Virus record (IMG/VR): IMGVR_UViG_3300042549_005911
Coordinates: 1 to 52,887 of that record
Reading direction: 5' to 3' (one strand)
Source of the DNA: a virus
Taxonomy: Duplodnaviria > Caudoviricetes
Length of the DNA stretch: 52,887 bases
Each line of letters begins with the position of its first letter. Within the stretch, counting starts at the first letter, position 1. Shown piece after piece: positions 4,480 to 11,731 of this stretch. Made by a program: the position numbers and the translations under genes. Below the pieces are notes generated by a model. The model did not search any database. It saw only the letters and a program-made list of their open reading frames with translations, and was not told the DNA's origin.

Positions 4480-4943
4480 TCCTTGGTATTGACCCTGGCC
4501 TGAGCGGCGCAATCGCGCTGCTCAGCCAAGAGGGCAACGTCCTCGCTATTGAGGACATGCCGACCGTCGAAATTGTCGTCAACGGTAAGAAGCGCAGGAC
4601 CGTGCCCCCTGCGGCACTCGTGGCCTTGCTAAAAAAGATGGCGCCGCAGAAGGCGTTCCTTGAGAATGTTGGCGTTCGACCGGGGGAAGGCGCTGTCGGG
4701 GCTTTCTCTTTTGGGCGCAATCTCGGACAGATTGAAGGCGTCTTAGCGGCACTTCAAATCCCCACTACGCTTGTCCACCCAGCAACGTGGAAGCGGCGCA
4801 TGGACATCCCTGCTGATAAGGGAGGCGCGCGTCTAAAGGCGATGGCGTTGTTCCCCGACAAGGTAGATTTGTTCAAGCGCGTGAAGGATGACGGCAGGGC
4901 AGAAAGTGCGCTCTTGGCTTACTACGGGCTAAGCAATGCCTGA
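4476..4943 (+). CDS. RuvC-like Holliday junction resolvase
   Basis: ILGIDPGLSGAIA, FLENV, FSFG, PATWK, DGRAES. TTG start overlaps the nrdB stop. Confidence 0.88.
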   Translation: MILGIDPGLSGAIALLSQEGNVLAIEDMPTVEIVVNGKKRRTVPPAALVALLKKMAPQKAFLENVGVRPGEGAVGAFSFGRNLGQIEGVLAALQIPTTLVHPATWKRRMDIPADKGGARLKAMALFPDKVDLFKRVKDDGRAESALLAYYGLSNA

Positions 4944-6348
4944 TTGGCAAGCGGGCCTTCTCCCTTACCAGATTGAAGGCGTCAATTTCCTCGTCGCCAA
5001 GAAGACCGATCAAGCCAATGCCGGTCTTTTTGACGACATGGGGCTTGGCAAGACGGCGCAAGCCATTCGCGCTGCCGACGCGCTCAATCTAAAGCGCATC
5101 CTTGTTGTCTGCCCTGCTGTGGCGCGGATCAACTGGCAGCGCGAAATGCTAAATTGGCAGATAATTCCACGAACAACTTTCGTGATTAAAAATATCAAGT
5201 CTGAAATTCCACTCGAAGCAGATGTGGTTATCGTCAGCTATGATATGCTCGCCAATCCTGTCCTCCGCGCTAAAATTCTTAATATAGAGGAGTATGACCT
5301 CCTTATCATTGATGAGGCCCATGCGCTCAAGAACAGGACGGCTCTGCGCACAAAGGCGGTCTACGGCGAAAGGCTCAACGGCCAAGGAGGCATCCTAGCC
5401 GCTACCAAACGCACTTGGATTCTGACTGGCACTCCGCTGCCAAATAATGCTTCTGAAATCTACACGCACTTACGCGCACTAGCCTCCGAGCGGCTACAAA
5501 CGCCAGATGGACGTATGACGTATGCCCAATTCGTAAAACACTTTTGCGTTCTGGACATACTGCATTTCGGTATGAGAACAGTCGAACGCATTAAAGGCAA
5601 CAAAAACACAGGCGAGTTGCGCCAACGTATTGATGGTTTCTTCATCAGACGTAAAAAAGAAGAAGTTCTGACGCAGTTGCCTGCCCTACAATGGGGCACA
5701 ATTGTCCTTGAGCCGCCCAAGTCCGCGCTCAAGGAAGTGATGGCGCTTGAGAAGACCCAAGCCATCTCAGAAGTCAAAGCTGTCCTGGCCGCAGCGGCAG
5801 CGAGTTATCATAACAAAGATGGCACATTATCAGACGATATTCTCCGCAATGCGGACAAGCAAGCCCTCGCTTCTTTGCGCCGCGCTGTCGGGATTGCGAA
5901 GGTAGAGCCGACAAGTGATTTCATCAAAGAAGAATTGGAGAATGGCGCGAAGAAGATCATCTTGTTCTGCTATCACCGCGAGGTTATTTCGCAAATAGCA
6001 GAAAAGCTCAAAGCCTTCTCCCCTGTCGTGATTACAGGAGATACCGCACGCAATGCACGGCAGAAGGCGATTGATGACTTCCAAAGCAACGACGAAGTTC
6101 GCCTATTTATTGGGCAGATCACAGCCACCAACTCTGCCATCACTCTGACGGCGAGCGACAATGTTCTGATTATGGAACCTTCATGGACACCAGCCGAGAA
6201 CGTCCAAGCCGCAGCGCGGGCGCATCGCATCGGCCAAAAAAGTTCTAGCGTGCTTGCCAGATACGTGGTATTGGCGGGCTCGATTGATGAAGATTTGACC
6301 CGCGTTATCATACGTAAGTCAAAGCAAATCAGCGAAATCATGCTCTAA
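4936..6348 (+). CDS. SNF2-family (SF2) helicase
   Basis: PYQ, DDMGLGKT, IIDEAH, LTGTP, QAAARAHRIGQ. Confidence 0.95.
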   Translation: MPDWQAGLLPYQIEGVNFLVAKKTDQANAGLFDDMGLGKTAQAIRAADALNLKRILVVCPAVARINWQREMLNWQIIPRTTFVIKNIKSEIPLEADVVIVSYDMLANPVLRAKILNIEEYDLLIIDEAHALKNRTALRTKAVYGERLNGQGGILAATKRTWILTGTPLPNNASEIYTHLRALASERLQTPDGRMTYAQFVKHFCVLDILHFGMRTVERIKGNKNTGELRQRIDGFFIRRKKEEVLTQLPALQWGTIVLEPPKSALKEVMALEKTQAISEVKAVLAAAAASYHNKDGTLSDDILRNADKQALASLRRAVGIAKVEPTSDFIKEELENGAKKIILFCYHREVISQIAEKLKAFSPVVITGDTARNARQKAIDDFQSNDEVRLFIGQITATNSAITLTASDNVLIMEPSWTPAENVQAAARAHRIGQKSSSVLARYVVLAGSIDEDLTRVIIRKSKQISEIML

Positions 6349-8825: not shown

Positions 8826-9278
8826 ATGCACGATACACCCACATATCACATCGACTACGAAACCAAATCCACCGCCAACCTTAAACTCGTTGGCGTCTAT
8901 CGCTATGCCGAACACCCCAGCACCGACATTCTGTGCATGGGGTTTGCGCGCAATAACGAGCCTGTCCAGATATGGACGCCAGACTTCCCGTGGCCCGTGG
9001 AACTGAACGAGCATATCAGGCAGGGCTTTCCGATCTTTGCGCACAACGCGCAGTTCGAACGCCTGATTACCAAGAACATCGCCGTAGCGCGCTACGGCTG
9101 CGCCCCTGTGGCGTTGGAGCAATGGTTCTGCACGGCTGCTATGGCCGCAGCCATGGCCCTTCCACGGTCACTAGAAGGGCTTGGTGAGGCACTTAGCCTG
9201 CCGATCCAAAAGGACATGGAAGGTAGCAGGCACATGTTGAAGATGACGAAGCCAAGGAAGGGGCAGAAAGTCGCGTGA
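8826..9278 (+). CDS. Family A DNA polymerase, N-terminal 3'-5' exonuclease fragment
   Basis: ExoI HIDYETKS, ExoII AHNAQFER, LPRSL. Confidence 0.88.
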   Translation: MHDTPTYHIDYETKSTANLKLVGVYRYAEHPSTDILCMGFARNNEPVQIWTPDFPWPVELNEHIRQGFPIFAHNAQFERLITKNIAVARYGCAPVALEQWFCTAAMAAAMALPRSLEGLGEALSLPIQKDMEGSRHMLKMTKPRKGQKVA

Positions 9279-11731
9279 TAGATGACGATGACGACGATCT
9301 CGCCCACGTCCGTTGGTGGGACGACTTTGAAATCACTGGCAAGACAGAAGCGACACGCGAAAAGCAGCGTGCCGAATATCTCGCGCGCCTTGAAAAACTA
9401 TATCAATATTGCCGCACGGACGTAGAGGCGGAGCGCCTAGCCGAGACAAAACTTTACCCGCTTTCTCCATCGGAGCGGCAAGTCTATCTGCTTGACCAAA
9501 CTATCAACGACAGAGGTATAAGCGTAGACCTTGAAACTACGCGCATGGCCTTGGAGTTGGTGGAGAAGGCGGGTGGGCGGCTTAACGAGCGTATCGCTAA
9601 AATCACTAATGGTCTTGTCACCACGATCAACCAACGTGACAAGATGATCCAGTGGTTCGGTATGCAAGGCTGCCATTTCACGAGCCTCGATAAGCAAGGC
9701 ATCGTGAACGCGCTCAAGGACACGTCGCTACCGCCACAGGTGCGCGAAGCCCTAGAGATACGCCAGATCGGCGCCAAGTCCTCTACCAAGAAGCTGCAAG
9801 CCATCCTCAACATGGCTGACAGCGAAGGCCGCATCCACGGCAACTTGCTCTACCACGGGGCATCGACAGGCCGCTTCTCGGGTAAGGGCGTTCAGTTGCA
9901 AAACCTACCCCGCCCTGAAATCCTCAAACAGCCCGAAGACGCAATCCCTTATATTAAGAAGGGGGATATTGACCTTATTGAGATGTGCTTTGGTCCAGTG
10001 CAGACCGTAGCCGCTGATGTGATCCGCAGCCTTGTTATGGCGGCGGAAGGTAAAGTCCTTTACGCGGCAGACTTTGCGGCCATCGAAGCCCGAGTTCTGG
10101 CGTGGTTGGCGGGGCAGCAAGACCTTGTTGACCAGTTTGCAGACGGCGATGACATTTACTGCAACTTTGCGAGCCTGGTTTATAAAAAACCTCTTAATAA
10201 AAAGGACAATCCTAAAGAGAGGCAACTAGGAAAGGCGTGCATTGCCGAAGGGACTCTGGTATATACGGACCACGGGCTTGTCCCGATAGAACAAATCACT
10301 TTTGATATGAAAGTTTGGGACGGTGAAGAATGGGTAGAGCATCTGGGAGTCTTGTCGAATTGCACGCGAAGCGTGTTGCCTTTGTGCGGGATTTGGTTGA
10401 CTCCGGATCATCGAGTGTTGTGCGGGACGAGTTGGTTGGACGCCGGGTTTCTGGCGCAAGACAGAGATTCCCTACCCCTAGCATTGGCCACCGCAGCGGG
10501 AAACTTACCGTCACCGGATATTTTATTGGAGTCAGGGGAGGGATCGCGGGCCTTATTGTCCAGTGCGATTGCAGCCCCGGAGAATACTCCGTGCCAAATA
10601 ACTCGTATAGAAATTTCACCAGCACGCGATGCGCGCTGTGCGCCAACACTAAAAGCGGAACTACGCGAAAGAATTTTTGGGGTTATGCGGATATTTGCCC
10701 CGAAGATGACCATAGGACGCGGCTCCTTAACCGGATATCTGCGATCATCAACAGGTGCTGCAATCCCAACGATTCAGGATACGCGCATTATGGTGGACGG
10801 GGTTTGCGTGTCTACGAGCCTTGGATCAAAGACCGAAGGGGATTTCTCAAGTATCTGCTCAGTCTTGAAAACTGGGATGTCCCTGAGTTTGAGCTTGATA
10901 GGGCTGACAACAATCTCGGCTATCTCCCCGGAAATTTGCGGTTTGTCTCCCGTAAAGATAACGTCAACAATAGGCGGAGTGTCGGGGAACTGCAACGTAG
11001 AATCCAAGACCTTGAAGCCCGTCTACGATCTTGTAAATGCGGGGCCGCGCAACAGGTTCATGATACACACGGATCGCGGACCCTTAATTGTTCATAATTG
11101 TATATTGGGTCTGGGCTACGCCATGGGCGCCTCTAAGTTCGCTTTGACTTGCGCCAAGGACCAGATTTTCTTGGAAGAAGAAGAATACAAGCGCGTCGTT
11201 ACTTTGTATCGTGAAACCTACAGCCAAATCCCCAAATTTTGGTATGCCTTGGAGCGCGCCGCGATGCGGGCGATCAGCAACCCCAACAGCGTGGTCACGC
11301 TGCGGAACATGAAGTTTAGGATGCGCGATGGCAACTTGCGCTTGCTTCTACCGTCAGGCCGTGCGCTCAACTACCCAGAAGCCCGCGTCTGCAAGGTCAA
11401 GACGCCTTGGGGCGAGATGAAGAACGGCGTCGAGATCAGCGCTGTTAACGCTCTTACCCGCAAGTGGGAACGCGCCACCATAAGCCCTGGCACCTTTACC
11501 GAGAATGTCGTGCAAGCCGTTTCGCGCGACCTCATGATATCGTCAATGTTCCGACTTGAGGAACACAACTATCCCGTGTTGTTGACAGTTCATGACGAAG
11601 TGGTTTCCGAGGTTGACGAGGGCTACGGAAGCGTGGCAGAGTATGAAGCGTTGGTAGCCGCCACGCCCGATTGGGCGGCAGGGCTGCCCGTCAAGGCTGA
11701 AGGCTGGTCTGGTAAAAGGTATAGAAAATGA
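9275..11731 (+). CDS. polA: Family A DNA polymerase, main part (intein-containing)
   Basis: ExoIII YCRTDV, TGRFSG..VQLQNLPR, motif A ADFAAIEARVLAW, motif B RQLGKA|CILGLGY interrupted by an insertion, motif C LTVHDEVV. Confidence 0.95.
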   Translation: MIDDDDDDLAHVRWWDDFEITGKTEATREKQRAEYLARLEKLYQYCRTDVEAERLAETKLYPLSPSERQVYLLDQTINDRGISVDLETTRMALELVEKAGGRLNERIAKITNGLVTTINQRDKMIQWFGMQGCHFTSLDKQGIVNALKDTSLPPQVREALEIRQIGAKSSTKKLQAILNMADSEGRIHGNLLYHGASTGRFSGKGVQLQNLPRPEILKQPEDAIPYIKKGDIDLIEMCFGPVQTVAADVIRSLVMAAEGKVLYAADFAAIEARVLAWLAGQQDLVDQFADGDDIYCNFASLVYKKPLNKKDNPKERQLGKACIAEGTLVYTDHGLVPIEQITFDMKVWDGEEWVEHLGVLSNCTRSVLPLCGIWLTPDHRVLCGTSWLDAGFLAQDRDSLPLALATAAGNLPSPDILLESGEGSRALLSSAIAAPENTPCQITRIEISPARDARCAPTLKAELRERIFGVMRIFAPKMTIGRGSLTGYLRSSTGAAIPTIQDTRIMVDGVCVSTSLGSKTEGDFSSICSVLKTGMSLSLSLIGLTTISAISPEICGLSPVKITSTIGGVSGNCNVESKTLKPVYDLVNAGPRNRFMIHTDRGPLIVHNCILGLGYAMGASKFALTCAKDQIFLEEEEYKRVVTLYRETYSQIPKFWYALERAAMRAISNPNSVVTLRNMKFRMRDGNLRLLLPSGRALNYPEARVCKVKTPWGEMKNGVEISAVNALTRKWERATISPGTFTENVVQAVSRDLMISSMFRLEEHNYPVLLTVHDEVVSEVDEGYGSVAEYEALVAATPDWAAGLPVKAEGWSGKRYRK
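10238..11098 (+). mobile_element. Intein (287 aa) in PolA motif B
   Basis: Block A CIAEGTLVYTDHGLVPIEQI, block B LTPDHRVL, block F VYDLV, block G LIVHN followed by +1 Cys. Removal restores RQLGKACILGLGYAMG. Confidence 0.95.
10330..11097 (+). CDS. HNH-family homing endonuclease nested in the intein, alternative (-1) frame
   Basis: IGHRSGKLTV, CDC..RCALC, RCCNPNDSGYAHYGGRGLRVYEPW, ELDRADNNLGYLPGNLRFVSRKDNVNNRR. The start codon is uncertain. Confidence 0.88.
   Translation: MGRASGSLVELHAKRVAFVRDLVDSGSSSVVRDELVGRRVSGARQRFPTPSIGHRSGKLTVTGYFIGVRGGIAGLIVQCDCSPGEYSVPNNSYRNFTSTRCALCANTKSGTTRKNFWGYADICPEDDHRTRLLNRISAIINRCCNPNDSGYAHYGGRGLRVYEPWIKDRRGFLKYLLSLENWDVPEFELDRADNNLGYLPGNLRFVSRKDNVNNRRSVGELQRRIQDLEARLRSCKCGAAQQVHDTHGSRTLNCS

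Follow-up and report, generated by a model that had tools for sequence, protein, structure and literature searches.

The homing nuclease of textbook inteins is an in-frame domain of the intein protein. Out-of-frame intein nucleases, a rare layout, have been reported for other nuclease types in preprints from 2025-26, which cite Gorbalenya 1998. For one such intein, found in actinophages, the authors of the preprint propose an origin through invasion of the intein by a free-standing phage nuclease. A cyanobacterial dnaX intein carries a LAGLIDADG nuclease in the +2 frame (Phillips, DeSimone and Gogarten, bioRxiv 10.64898/2026.09.14.751524, which cites Gorbalenya 1998). The ShiLan 'hidden HNH' insertion is found in mycobacteriophage DNA methylases, and the translation route of its nuclease is an open question (Arsenault et al., Genes 2025, PMC11855218). 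In 'fractured genes' a homing nuclease gene stands on its own between the parts of a split intein (Dassa et al. 2009, PMC2677866).

The locus considered here lies in a tailed-phage DNA of 52,887 nucleotides (Caudoviricetes; IMG/VR record IMGVR_UViG_3300042549_005911), referred to as the window. It probably represents a mobile class-1 intein in motif B of a phage family-A polymerase, with an HNH-like nuclease encoded in the -1 frame that is likely made separately and would home to intein-free alleles. A first-pass annotation of the sequence had considered the architecture possibly novel, subject to a literature check. It is not new in kind, having been reported in 1998 and 2025-26 for other nuclease types. 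What differs is the nuclease family, and no description of this HNH-like PolA intein family was found in the literature.

The polymerase gene and its intein

The polymerase ORF (9275-11731, 818 aa) matches Pfam DNA_pol_A (E=2.4e-24), and the best-matching stretch stops at residue 322, the first residue of the intein. The upstream ORF, without a Pfam hit, lies in another frame and overlaps the polymerase ORF by 4 nt; the same split of the polymerase into two ORFs occurs in an independent contig. The intein is flanked by RQLGKA on one side and CILGLGYAMG on the other, which we take to be PolA motif B (consensus R..(A/G)K......YG). Coordinates are collected in the table.

Features of the polymerase locus in the window
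Feature	Position	Strand	Remarks
Upstream ORF	8826..9278	+	150 aa; aligns with the beginning of the L007 polymerase, a single ORF
N-extein, PolA-type polymerase	9275..10237	+	Ends ...ERQLGKA (motif B Lys); Pfam DNA_pol_A; aligns with L007 polymerase
Whole intein	10238..11098	+	861 nt, 287 aa, Cys1 to His-Asn; Cys+1 at 11099
N-terminal splicing (Hint) domain	10238..10513	+	Intein residues 1-92, including block B T-P-D-H
Shine-Dalgarno-like element	10317..10326	+	GGGACGGTGA; from intein W-D-G-E codons; last three bases TGA
HNH-like nuclease ORF	10330..11097	+	-1 frame; 255 codons plus TAA; proposed internal start ATG 10330
Part of -1 ORF under purifying selection	10432..11030	+	N-terminal Zn-ribbon/beta-barrel domain, helical region, putative beta-beta-alpha core
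In-frame read-through of nuclease gene	10514..11005	+	Intein residues 93-256; linker, no predicted structure, stop-free
Beta-beta-alpha-metal-like core	10888..10971	+	Model residues 153-180; DSSP of model and invariant columns in 50 sequences
C-terminal splicing domain	11006..11098	+	Blocks F and G: VYDLVNAGPRNRF ... IVHN
C-extein	11099..11731	+	From CILGLGYAMG (remaining motif B) through motif C (LTVHDEV); aligned with L007 polymerase

The translation of the insert is free of stops over 287 aa, running from C-I-A-E-G to I-V-H-N and followed by Cys. Cys1, the nucleophile of class-1 inteins (10238-10240), is invariant in 8/8 aligned loci and is also present in the cultured phages Sodalis phage SO-1 and Jerseyvirus S10. 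Block B TxxH reads T55-P-D-H58 in the window; its His is kept in seven of the eight aligned loci and is Gln in L020. The window intein ends in IVHN before Cys, and His-Asn plus Cys is found in nine environmental loci (including the partial L021; Ser in L017) and in both cultured phages. The stop-free translation, Cys1, the His-Asn/Cys junction and the flanks confirm the first-pass view of a canonical Cys...His-Asn/Cys intein interrupting PolA motif B. By these sequence features the segment is a class-1 intein in that motif, predicted to splice.

Profile searches of both frames had been suggested as a check at the first pass. The in-frame product gives a phrog_93 match and a weak Hint_2 match (E=0.1, 13.4 bits against a Pfam cut-off of 28.4), the score below threshold being a limit of sensitivity and not a defining biochemical feature. 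The AlphaFold model of the intein frame has a pLDDT of 79-90 for residues 1-92 and of 86-89 for residues 257-287. Residues 93-256 lie at about 29, with 164/164 below 50. The commonest residues in the central 163 are S, I, G, L and T, in line with the earlier reading of the in-frame middle as a Ser/Thr/Ile-rich shadow translation. All top Foldseek matches of the intein model are inteins or Hint domains, the best being the Mtu RecA mini-intein (E=3.2e-3, probability 1.00, TM-target 0.43); the E-values are modest because of the long unstructured insert.

Removal of the insert at the RNA level, as a group I intron with an HNH homing-endonuclease ORF, is very improbable. HNH ORFs are known in group I introns of phage polymerase genes (I-PfoP3I), and the GenBank note for SO-1 gp38/gp39 reads 'type I self-splicing intron'; against this, a search of 10000-11400 brings up no Rfam family at E<=1, the length of the insert is divisible by three and the host frame open in 10/10 loci, and stop avoidance in that frame is significant (see below). 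The residues of an intein are present (Cys1, TxxH, and His-Asn followed by Cys or Ser), and the ends of the element evolve as host-frame protein and fold as a Hint domain.

The nuclease reading frame and its probable start site

The intein frame and the -1 frame are both open over 10327-11094, a measured 768 nt where about 770 had been estimated, and the third frame is closed. The nuclease TAA sits within the terminal CAT-AAT of the intein, as the first-pass annotation had pointed out, but this overlap is incidental since the distance from the HNH stop to the intein end is 1, 25, 31, 43 or 61 nt depending on the locus. The conserved HNH part (~10432-11030) lies between block B (end ~10420) and block F (start ~11017).

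The -1 product matches PHROG profiles of HNH-endonuclease families, namely phrog_374 (E=3.1e-26 over residues 52-218) and phrog_3377, phrog_2081 and phrog_8790 (~1e-17); no match was found among Pfam (HNH models included) or NCBIfam. Its AF2 model reaches a mean pLDDT of 87.5, with at least 90 in 147/221 residues. Among the viral predicted structures of BFVD, 96 match the model at E<=1e-3, and several of these bear the name HNH homing endonuclease. Foldseek against the PDB returns nothing at E<=1e-3, and the best solved-structure match, PacI, is weak (Z 5.4, rmsd 3.5, 89 aligned), too low a score to establish a common fold. At the sequence level, no solved HNH enzyme is matched significantly (I-HmuI E=0.63, PacI E=0.64).

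Cys45, Cys67 and Cys70 of the HNH protein are invariant and Cys47 is nearly so. In the putative core, DSSP assigns strands at 153-157 and 169-173 and a helix at 174-180, at a pLDDT of about 97. Residues at similar spacing in I-HmuI are D74/H75...N87...N96. Here an invariant D156-R157 pair, encoded at 10897-10902, is followed by N168 and N177; in an alignment of 50 sequences D156 and N168 never vary, and conservation reaches at least 90% at N177 and N180. From their spacing, D156, N168, N177 and N180 may serve as the metal-ligand and conserved Asn residues. The position of the general-base His of HNH enzymes is occupied by Arg157, invariant in 50/50 aligned sequences. Nuclease activity is thus not assured, and the protein is termed HNH-like and not filed as a canonical HNH enzyme. 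The earlier assignment to the HNH family therefore stands as regards the 255-codon ORF and its PHROG families, and fails for the catalytic His.

Intein nt 93 is a start codon in 10/10 loci, ATG in nine and GTG in one, and corresponds to ATG 10330 in the window. The TGA that closes the Shine-Dalgarno-like (SD-like) element is the last HNH-frame stop before the nuclease ORF. In the window the duplex of this element with the anti-SD reaches -10.7 kcal/mol, a value that ranks within the top 0.9% across the gene. The upstream duplex lies within the top 0.2-12% of gene positions in 9/10 loci, the exception being L024 with a weak SD at the 24th percentile. In 8/10 loci the RNA at the start belongs to the least-folded 14% of windows; L019 and L020 have no open RNA there. 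Conserved intein residues (W-D-G-x-x-W) partly force these signals, which could hence be by-products. A second possible start is found at nt 192-201 in all loci but L025, and it seems to have a strong SD-like element in L007, L020 and L023. A contig from an RNA library covers 10782-11019 and may be DNA carry-over.

Separate production of the nuclease by internal initiation at ATG 10330 on the polymerase mRNA is moderately probable. A quite unlikely route is a -1 ribosomal frameshift within the N-terminal intein region, whose product would join the polymerase N-extein and part of the intein to the HNH domain and terminate near the intein end. In favour of such a shift, the offset between the HNH and polymerase frames is exactly -1 at every locus, and the first ~34 codons of the nuclease ORF are not conserved as HNH-frame protein, so that function does not demand a start ahead of the domain. 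The shift would have to take place, however, in the ~100 nt left by the HNH-frame TGA ending 3 nt before ATG 10330. Intein nt 1-270 hold no in-frame X_XXY_YYZ heptamer in 6/10 loci, the seven heptamers of the remaining four are at non-homologous positions, and the start codon at nt 93 with its upstream SD-like element is kept in every locus. Internal initiation accordingly remains the preferred reading.

Conservation and selection in the two frames

The -1 arrangement with a closed third frame is present in all eight full-length environmental loci and the partial L021, each within a long polymerase ORF, and at the DNA level in SO-1 and S10. It is also found inside an SNF2 helicase gene, and it is kept down to 39-54% HNH identity. 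The sole exception among 16 entries examined is L018, a distant, free-standing relative. When the same central DNA is compared with the window, identity is 41-78% in the HNH frame versus 21-49% in the intein frame, in 9/9 comparisons.

The window and L019 differ at 154 positions, with zero indels. In the N-splice region (nt 1-192), intein codon position 3 takes 15 of 18 differences, and in the centre HNH codon position 3 takes 78 of 134. The central synonymous/nonsynonymous counts are 28/106 in the intein frame versus 77/57 in the HNH frame, and the substitution pattern switches frame at ~10431. In an independent pair, SO-1 and S10, intein position 3 takes 17/25 differences in the N-splice and 11/12 in the C-splice region, and HNH position 3 takes 69/114 in the centre. 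Judged by such simple site counts on two independent sequence pairs, selection changes frame at both borders of the central region, with the HNH frame evidently under purifying selection and the host frame relaxed in the overlap.

The intein frame is also kept free of stops. When synonymous codons were shuffled with the HNH protein held fixed, only 1.1% of 5000 trials on the window intein left it open, and the share at seven other loci was 0.1-2.8%; the third frame carries 9-19 stops. The stop-free intein frame exceeds chance. The homologue comparison proposed at the first pass has thus found the HNH frame conserved and the intein frame stop-free, and the dual-coding reading put forward there gains support from conservation, frame-switching selection, the contrast in predicted folding and the absence of indels.

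This last point bears on an assembly artefact, in which two compensating indels would mask an ordinary in-frame HNH intein. Its probability is negligible, and no support for it was found. Three full-length independent contigs carry 7, 7 and 9 substitutions relative to the window in the intein and no indel, contigs from three further runs show no indel over 10238-11098, and the -1 relation recurs in all diverged loci and cultured phages examined. Among 1024 candidates, no protein of more than 387 aa with this HNH in frame was found, which is weak evidence.

Taken as a dual-coding element, the cassette would work as follows. The polymerase frame would read through the whole of it, with ~92 N-terminal and 31 C-terminal residues forming the Hint splicing domain; the 164-residue unstructured linker would have to do no more than lack stop codons, allowing synthesis and splicing of the precursor. 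The central DNA read in the -1 frame would give an HNH-like (His-Me-finger-like) DNA nuclease of ~220-255 aa that carries a zinc-ribbon domain at its N-terminus, most likely from the internal start with its SD-like W-D-G codons and weakly folded RNA. Population patterns suggest that this nuclease may cut or nick intein-free polymerase alleles of co-infecting phages and that the empty site may then be filled during repair by a copy of the entire cassette together with adjoining extein sequence. The most likely origin of the cassette is the entry of a free-standing phage HNH gene into a mini-intein, and it would move as one unit between two insertion points four codons apart and into other genes.

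Evidence for mobility of the cassette, and its relation to known systems

The protein P0119 has exteins identical to those of the window at 282/285 and 157/158 positions and an intein identical at only 124/287, and the flanks of its intein are intermediate (24/36 and 38/52). The pattern marks a conversion tract that surrounds the intein of a polymerase otherwise 99% identical to that of the window. Intein-free Jerseyvirus polymerases occur at 96-97% extein identity, and in run X8 a minor contig is short of exactly 861 nt net at the insertion site. Together, the intein-free alleles and the conversion tract indicate mobility. The same cassette is found in the SNF2 helicase gene, mini-intein relatives lacking the centre sit in the same motif, and free-standing relatives of the HNH protein are known (P0111-P0113, L018). 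The scale of the family is given by 462 related intein-bearing proteins and 112 called -1-frame ORFs; tblastn finds the nuclease in 179 cultured-phage records, mostly labelled 'DNA polymerase'.

In the polymerase clade of the window the intein is present in 5/5 same-length relatives inspected (P0114, P0115, P0116, P0119, P0122), which fits long vertical persistence as well as homing. The -1 frame might then encode a former homing nuclease that lost catalysis with the exchange of Arg for His, and is kept for another role such as DNA binding or has only recently been released from selection, the intein being inherited mainly vertically because its precise loss is hard. The invariant Arg and the lack of significant matches to Pfam HNH models or solved HNH enzymes agree with this account, which is nonetheless unlikely. 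Purifying selection acts on the -1 frame in two independent pairs, and the same Arg in all 50 sequences, including the free-standing P0111-P0113 and L018, points to a family trait and not to decay. The account is further opposed by the tract around the P0119 intein, by intein-plus and intein-free alleles side by side among the 96-97% identical Jerseyvirus polymerases and in one sample, and by the transfer of the cassette into the helicase gene. A mobile element with a presumably active nuclease remains the favoured interpretation.

A wider reading, which we hold to be evenly poised, is that of a large, hitherto undescribed family of dual-coded mobile inteins. Its HNH-like nuclease would have been captured from a free-standing phage gene and be expressed inside the polymerase mRNA by a start signal made of the conserved W-D-G-x-x-W codons of the intein. 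The cassette would retarget as a unit between two motif B points 12 nt apart, without tracking cassette phylogeny, and into an SNF2 helicase gene. If true, this would be the first genetically tractable system for the cooperation of a separately translated nuclease with a splicing domain and for the birth of full inteins. Natural intein-plus/intein-free pairs exist among Escherichia and Salmonella phages; since these phages are easily grown and provide empty-site alleles, translation, cleavage and homing are directly testable. Overprinted separate nucleases are relevant to the acquisition of nucleases by inteins (the 'splicing first, nuclease invades later' model) and reveal hidden coding capacity in alternate frames of phage genes, and this family adds an HNH-like example that is abundant and has strong evolutionary support. 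Gene callers annotate the polymerase or the nested ORF but rarely both, and one reference genome calls the element an intron, so that 'polymerase' proteins in databases hold ~160 residues of meaningless read-through.

The nearest relatives are homologues. SO-1 gp38/gp39 and the Jerseyvirus 'intein-containing DNA polymerase precursor' share the insertion site (GKA before C, and HN before CELGLGY) and the ATG at intein nt 93, and the core of their -1 HNH ORF is 39-44% identical to that of the window. The SO-1 record annotates the nested ORF, but as an intron endonuclease in a group I intron, and in Jerseyvirus records the intein is annotated, mostly without the nested ORF; no record or paper joining the two was found in GenBank annotations or the literature. 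Canonical in-frame HNH inteins and free-standing I-HmuI share with the present element the presumed homing job and a similar Asp, Asn, Asn spacing in the putative beta-beta-alpha core. The nuclease described here differs in forming no part of the spliced-out protein and in having Arg for the general-base His.

The actinophage nuclease lies, as in the window, on the same strand in 'frame 3' (equivalent to -1) between the splicing blocks of an intein of phage hosts, and its in-frame read-through has no recognisable structure. That nuclease matches T4 endonuclease VII (1E7D), whereas the one described here matches PHROG HNH families with a weak likeness to PacI and I-HmuI. The hosts of the present family are phages other than actinophages (environmental phages, Jerseyvirus, Dhillonvirus), its site is PolA motif B, and it is far more numerous, to judge by the main text of the preprint. 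The dnaX intein resembles the present one in that the in-frame model has low confidence and the alternate-frame model is confident, the alternate frame is under purifying selection, an SD motif precedes the nuclease start, and mini-intein relatives and coexisting intein-free alleles occur; it differs in having a LAGLIDADG and not an HNH-like nuclease, and a cellular host gene instead of a phage polymerase. ShiLan likewise has an out-of-frame HNH gene in a host ORF open throughout, with a stop in the last bases of the insert, but it is described as having no splicing domain and staying in the mature protein as a loop, whereas a complete Hint domain flanks the window insert, which presumably leaves by splicing. 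Fractured genes also lodge the nuclease as a separate product between intein halves. Their host gene and intein are physically divided over two ORFs and joined by trans-splicing, whereas in the window the host frame is open and cis-splicing is possible.

The intein and the frame nested in it

The window is a viral contig of 52.9 kb. Its family-A DNA polymerase belongs to a replication module that also encodes a PD-(D/E)XK/DUF2800 nuclease and an Enc34-type ssDNA-binding protein. It is interrupted by an intein whose flanks, RQLGKA and CILGLGYAMG, we take to be PolA motif B. The polymerase frame and the -1 frame are jointly open over 768 nt with the third frame closed, and the -1 product matches PHROG families of HNH endonucleases (phrog_374 at E=3.1e-26, three others at about 1e-17). 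Intein, flanks, nested ORF and doubly open stretch are, in all details, as the first-pass annotation had described them. It had also drawn attention to the TAA of the nested ORF lying within the terminal CAT-AAT codons of the intein. The position is correct but incidental, since the distance from the HNH stop to the end of the intein varies between 1 and 61 nt among loci.

Coordinates of the features discussed (on the window unless another locus is named)
Feature	Position	Size	Characteristics
First polymerase ORF	8826-9278	150 aa	terminates in TGA
Main polymerase ORF	9275-11731	818 aa	Pfam DNA_pol_A, E=2.4e-24
Intein	10238-11098	861 nt	no stop in polymerase frame; C-I-A-E-G ... I-V-H-N, then Cys
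-1-frame ORF	10330-11097	255 codons	
Intein borders in motif B	10232-10240, 11096-11110		intein sits at one of two insertion points 12 nt (4 codons) apart
Asp-Arg pair at catalytic-His position	10897-10902		D156-R157
Block F	11011-11052	42 nt	VYDLVNAGPRNRF
Split polymerase of contig L002	2497-2949, 2793-5402		two ORFs
Helicase of contig L028	1282-3603		SNF2 family
-1 ORF of contig L028	1548-2702		HNH-like
Helicase of Jerseyvirus S10 (L025)	4639-5633		annotated as intein-containing

The polymerase itself is split over two overlapping ORFs. The first aligns with the beginning of the polymerase of another locus (L007), where it is a single ORF, and the polymerase proper resumes in the -1 frame relative to it. 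The same split occurs in an independent contig (L002) and so is not an error specific to the window; by eye, no canonical slippery heptamer is seen at the overlap. The split polymerase may represent two proteins or a frameshift product.

A frame shift inside an intein could be an assembly artefact, with indels masking an ordinary in-frame intein. The element is present in five near-identical contigs of other samples; of the three that span the intein completely, two differ from the window by 7 substitutions and one by 9, with zero indels, and contigs from three further public runs likewise contain no indel within 10238-11098. At the level of assembled contigs, the indel check posed by the first-pass annotation therefore argues against an artefact, and the frame shift is not one.

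Diverged relatives of the -1 protein are found in viral and metagenome contigs. In 15 of the 16 entries examined the HNH match lies inside a long ORF at +1 relative to it, the sole exception (L018) being a distant, free-standing gene. Full-length inteins can be delimited in eight environmental loci (283-293 aa) and in two cultured phages, Sodalis phage SO-1 and Jerseyvirus S10 (both 299 aa), and in all ten the length is divisible by 3. Searched at the DNA level, cultured phages yield only a 123-nt match to the complete polymerase region, so that a protein-level search is needed. By tblastn against 50,697 phage records the HNH core matches 179, of which 165 at a coverage of at least 80%, and nearly all of the better matches lie under features named DNA polymerase. 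The weakest, at about 30% identity, come from Enterococcus, Staphylococcus and Butyrivibrio phages and look free-standing, since the features over them are called HNH endonuclease or hypothetical protein instead of polymerase. A large protein collection contains 112 matching proteins (E<=1e-5) with a length like that of the -1 ORF; most of the 22 inspected carry 'shadow' motifs of the intein blocks, which identifies such proteins as the same nested ORF called by gene finders. A further 462 longer proteins match the intein region and are mostly PolA. None of 1024 candidates among longer proteins carries this HNH in frame, which is weak evidence.

Selection, probable translation and predicted fold

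The window and locus L019 differ at 154 positions without indels. In intein nt 1-192, 15 of 18 changes fall at intein codon position 3 (S/N 15/3 in the intein frame, 3/15 in the HNH frame), and in nt 193-780, 78 of 134 fall at position 2 of the intein codons and hence at position 3 of the HNH codons (S/N 28/106 and 77/57, respectively). In the unrelated pair SO-1 and S10, intein codon position 3 takes 17 of 25 changes in the N-splice part, HNH codon position 3 takes 69 of 114 in the centre, and 11 of 12 at the 3' end are again at intein position 3, a switch back. In nine of nine comparisons with the window the central DNA gives 41-78% identity for the HNH-frame protein against 21-49% for the intein-frame protein. 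When the HNH protein and its codon pool are held fixed (5000 shuffles per locus, eight loci), the intein frame is stop-free in only 0.1-2.8% of shuffles, which means that the open host frame is actively maintained. By these site counts and shuffles the HNH frame is selected in the centre and the intein frame is preserved. A stretch of about 80 nt (10432-10513) appears to be under constraint in both frames: one encodes the final helices of the N-splicing domain, the other the region of the nuclease's first strand.

The HNH-like nuclease would be made from its own start at intein nt 93, inside the polymerase mRNA. All ten loci have a start codon there (ATG in nine, GTG in one), which arises from the base preceding a conserved intein Trp codon, and the Shine-Dalgarno-like element upstream is formed by the conserved W-D-G codons. 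The duplex with the 16S tail ranks in the top 0.2-12% of positions in nine of the ten loci (-10.7 kcal/mol and top 0.9% in the window), and the RNA near the start is weakly folded in eight. This start is probably the route to nuclease translation. Another candidate start, in the window TTG 10432, lies at nt 192-201 of the intein in nine of the ten loci and coincides with the switch in selection; it ranks second because it is missing in Jerseyvirus S10 and its anti-SD duplex in the window is weak (-4.0 kcal/mol, 25th percentile). Production by -1 ribosomal frameshifting is unlikely, as nt 1-270 contain no slippery heptamer in frame in six of the ten loci, and in the other four the heptamers lie at differing places.

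A sigma-70 promoter scan of 9800-11300 yields 2 sites against 1.3 expected; the candidate at 10302-10331 on the plus strand (9/12 matches) is discarded because the total is not above chance. One metatranscriptome run contains a 238-nt contig identical to 10782-11019, possibly DNA carry-over, and among the metatranscriptome contigs, whose cover is incomplete, none bridges an intein border.

An AF2 model of the -1 product from 10432 onward, built on a 50-sequence alignment, has a mean pLDDT of 87.5 and comprises three parts: a beta-rich N-terminal domain that contains the cysteines of the CxC...CxxC motif, a middle made of helices, and at 153-180 a beta-beta-alpha unit. In the predicted intein-frame product a confident fold is confined to residues 1-92 and 257-287, for which solved inteins and Hint domains occur throughout the Foldseek list; the 164 residues in between (93-256) all score under 50 in pLDDT (block means 25-41). 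The HNH model has 96 matches at E<=1e-3 among predicted viral structures. Its best match is a protein of 247 aa from Salmonella phage LPSE1, labelled 'uncharacterized protein' (42% identity), and many of the others bear the name HNH homing endonuclease or AP2-domain protein. Because the tblastn match in the LPSE1 record lies under a 'hypothetical protein' feature, we take the LPSE1 protein to be putatively the same nested ORF.

The -1 frame had been read as a recognisable HNH-family nuclease. PHROG bears this out, but the Pfam and NCBIfam scans return no nuclease family for the product; the sole Pfam family among 50 family members is the CapR homology domain (PF21817), in 11 of them (best E=6.3e-6). 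Searching solved structures with a sequence profile gives nothing significant, the top matches being a Cox5B zinc-ribbon likeness (E=0.16), I-HmuI (0.63) and PacI (0.64). Foldseek of the model against the PDB has no match at E<=1e-3, and VIA-align returns only PacI, weakly (Z 5.4), with the N-terminal domain aligning to Tudor/SH3-like barrels. Nor does the canonical catalytic His stand: its position is an Arg in 50 of 50 aligned members, free-standing relatives included. Owing to this Arg and the weak links to solved HNH enzymes the protein is called HNH-like and its nuclease activity putative; the family may use another general base, or may only nick. The dual-coding interpretation put forward in the first pass is supported by frame-specific selection, the conserved arrangement and the HNH-frame fold; translation, cleavage, splicing and homing we infer for the window element.

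Insertion sites, signs of mobility and possible origin

The exteins of P0119, a related protein, are identical to those of the window at 282 of 285 and 157 of 158 residues, and the intein at 124 of 287; the residues flanking the intein (36 and 52) are identical at 24/36 and 38/52. At the level of sequence this pattern is that of a conversion tract. A Jerseyvirus precursor matches 712 phage records. In 160 of them a single match covers at least 80% of it; in many others the match is broken in two (72% coverage, 96-97% identity), and these are therefore intein-free alleles. In public run X8 a minor contig (depth 4.4 vs 231) has 77 other letters in place of 10170-11107, a net loss of exactly 861 nt, with diverged flanks around the missing intein. 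An empty-site allele of a related phage thus occurs in the same sample.

Two insertion points are used in motif B (^ marks the junction). Site a, GK(x)^C(I/E)L..GY, is occupied in six loci (the window, L019, L020, L023, L024 and L025) and site b, GKxxxxx^(C/S)GY, in four (L007, L015, L017 and L022) plus the partial L021. Site use does not track cassette similarity: L022, at site b, is nearest to L020 (67%) and L023 (65%), both at site a. The lack of correspondence points to repeated re-targeting or to a nuclease whose cut lies away from the insertion point. This intein, again with an HNH-like ORF in the -1 frame, also interrupts a helicase gene of the SNF2 family; the contig (L028, 46 kb) is assigned to a bacterial MAG. 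This intein-bearing copy comes from a genome collection; the SNF2 helicase loci of viral contigs L026 and L027 are intein-free alleles.

Mini-inteins with a closely similar N-terminus (CIAEG.LVLTD.G.VPI...) occur at site b of other polymerases, and at least one relative of the nuclease (P0105) looks free-standing. A mini-intein would have captured a free-standing nuclease gene, and the signs of mobility, the mini-inteins and the free-standing relative fit such a capture. Mini-inteins would also result if full elements lost the nuclease by deletion.

Three other phage PolA proteins (P0153, P0159 and P0170) contain two or three mini-inteins of the same splicing-domain family without the central region, at various sites including site b of motif B. 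Two further proteins (P0117 and P0118) have a second, longer intein near the C-terminal motif; its Arg/Gln-rich centre looks like another non-coding read-through and may conceal a nuclease encoded in some other frame or by the opposite strand. In Jerseyvirus S10 the helicase gene adjoining the polymerase is likewise annotated as intein-containing, and as tblastn finds one HNH-like place per record, that intein lacks this nuclease. Three runs contain separate contigs, about 920 nt long, that match the window just at block F (38/42 letters) and diverge on either side, so other members of the intein family coexist in those samples.

Comparison with known systems

The GenBank record of Sodalis phage SO-1 annotates the nested ORF and labels the element a group I intron. 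The insert of the window matches no Rfam family. Out-of-frame and antisense intein nucleases are the subject of two preprints, both of which cite Gorbalenya (1998). In actinophage inteins, according to one preprint, an endonuclease VII-like gene lies in 'frame 3', and antisense LAGLIDADG or VSR-like genes also occur. Cyanobacterial dnaX inteins are described in the other as carrying LAGLIDADG in the +2 frame (bioRxiv 10.64898/2026.09.14.751524), with the same lines of evidence as for the family of the window. In ShiLan, an out-of-frame HNH is reported within a non-splicing methylase insertion (PMC11855218). In the literature covered, with most subscription journals outside its scope, no paper describes an out-of-frame HNH either in the intein of a PolA or in the polymerases of Jerseyvirus or Dhillonvirus. 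The novelty that the first-pass annotation had left to a literature check is thus confined to the family: this PolA/HNH-like group was not found described, and out-of-frame intein nucleases are already in print. The kind of element is not itself new, and the PolA/HNH-like inteins are a very well-populated addition to this recently recognised kind.
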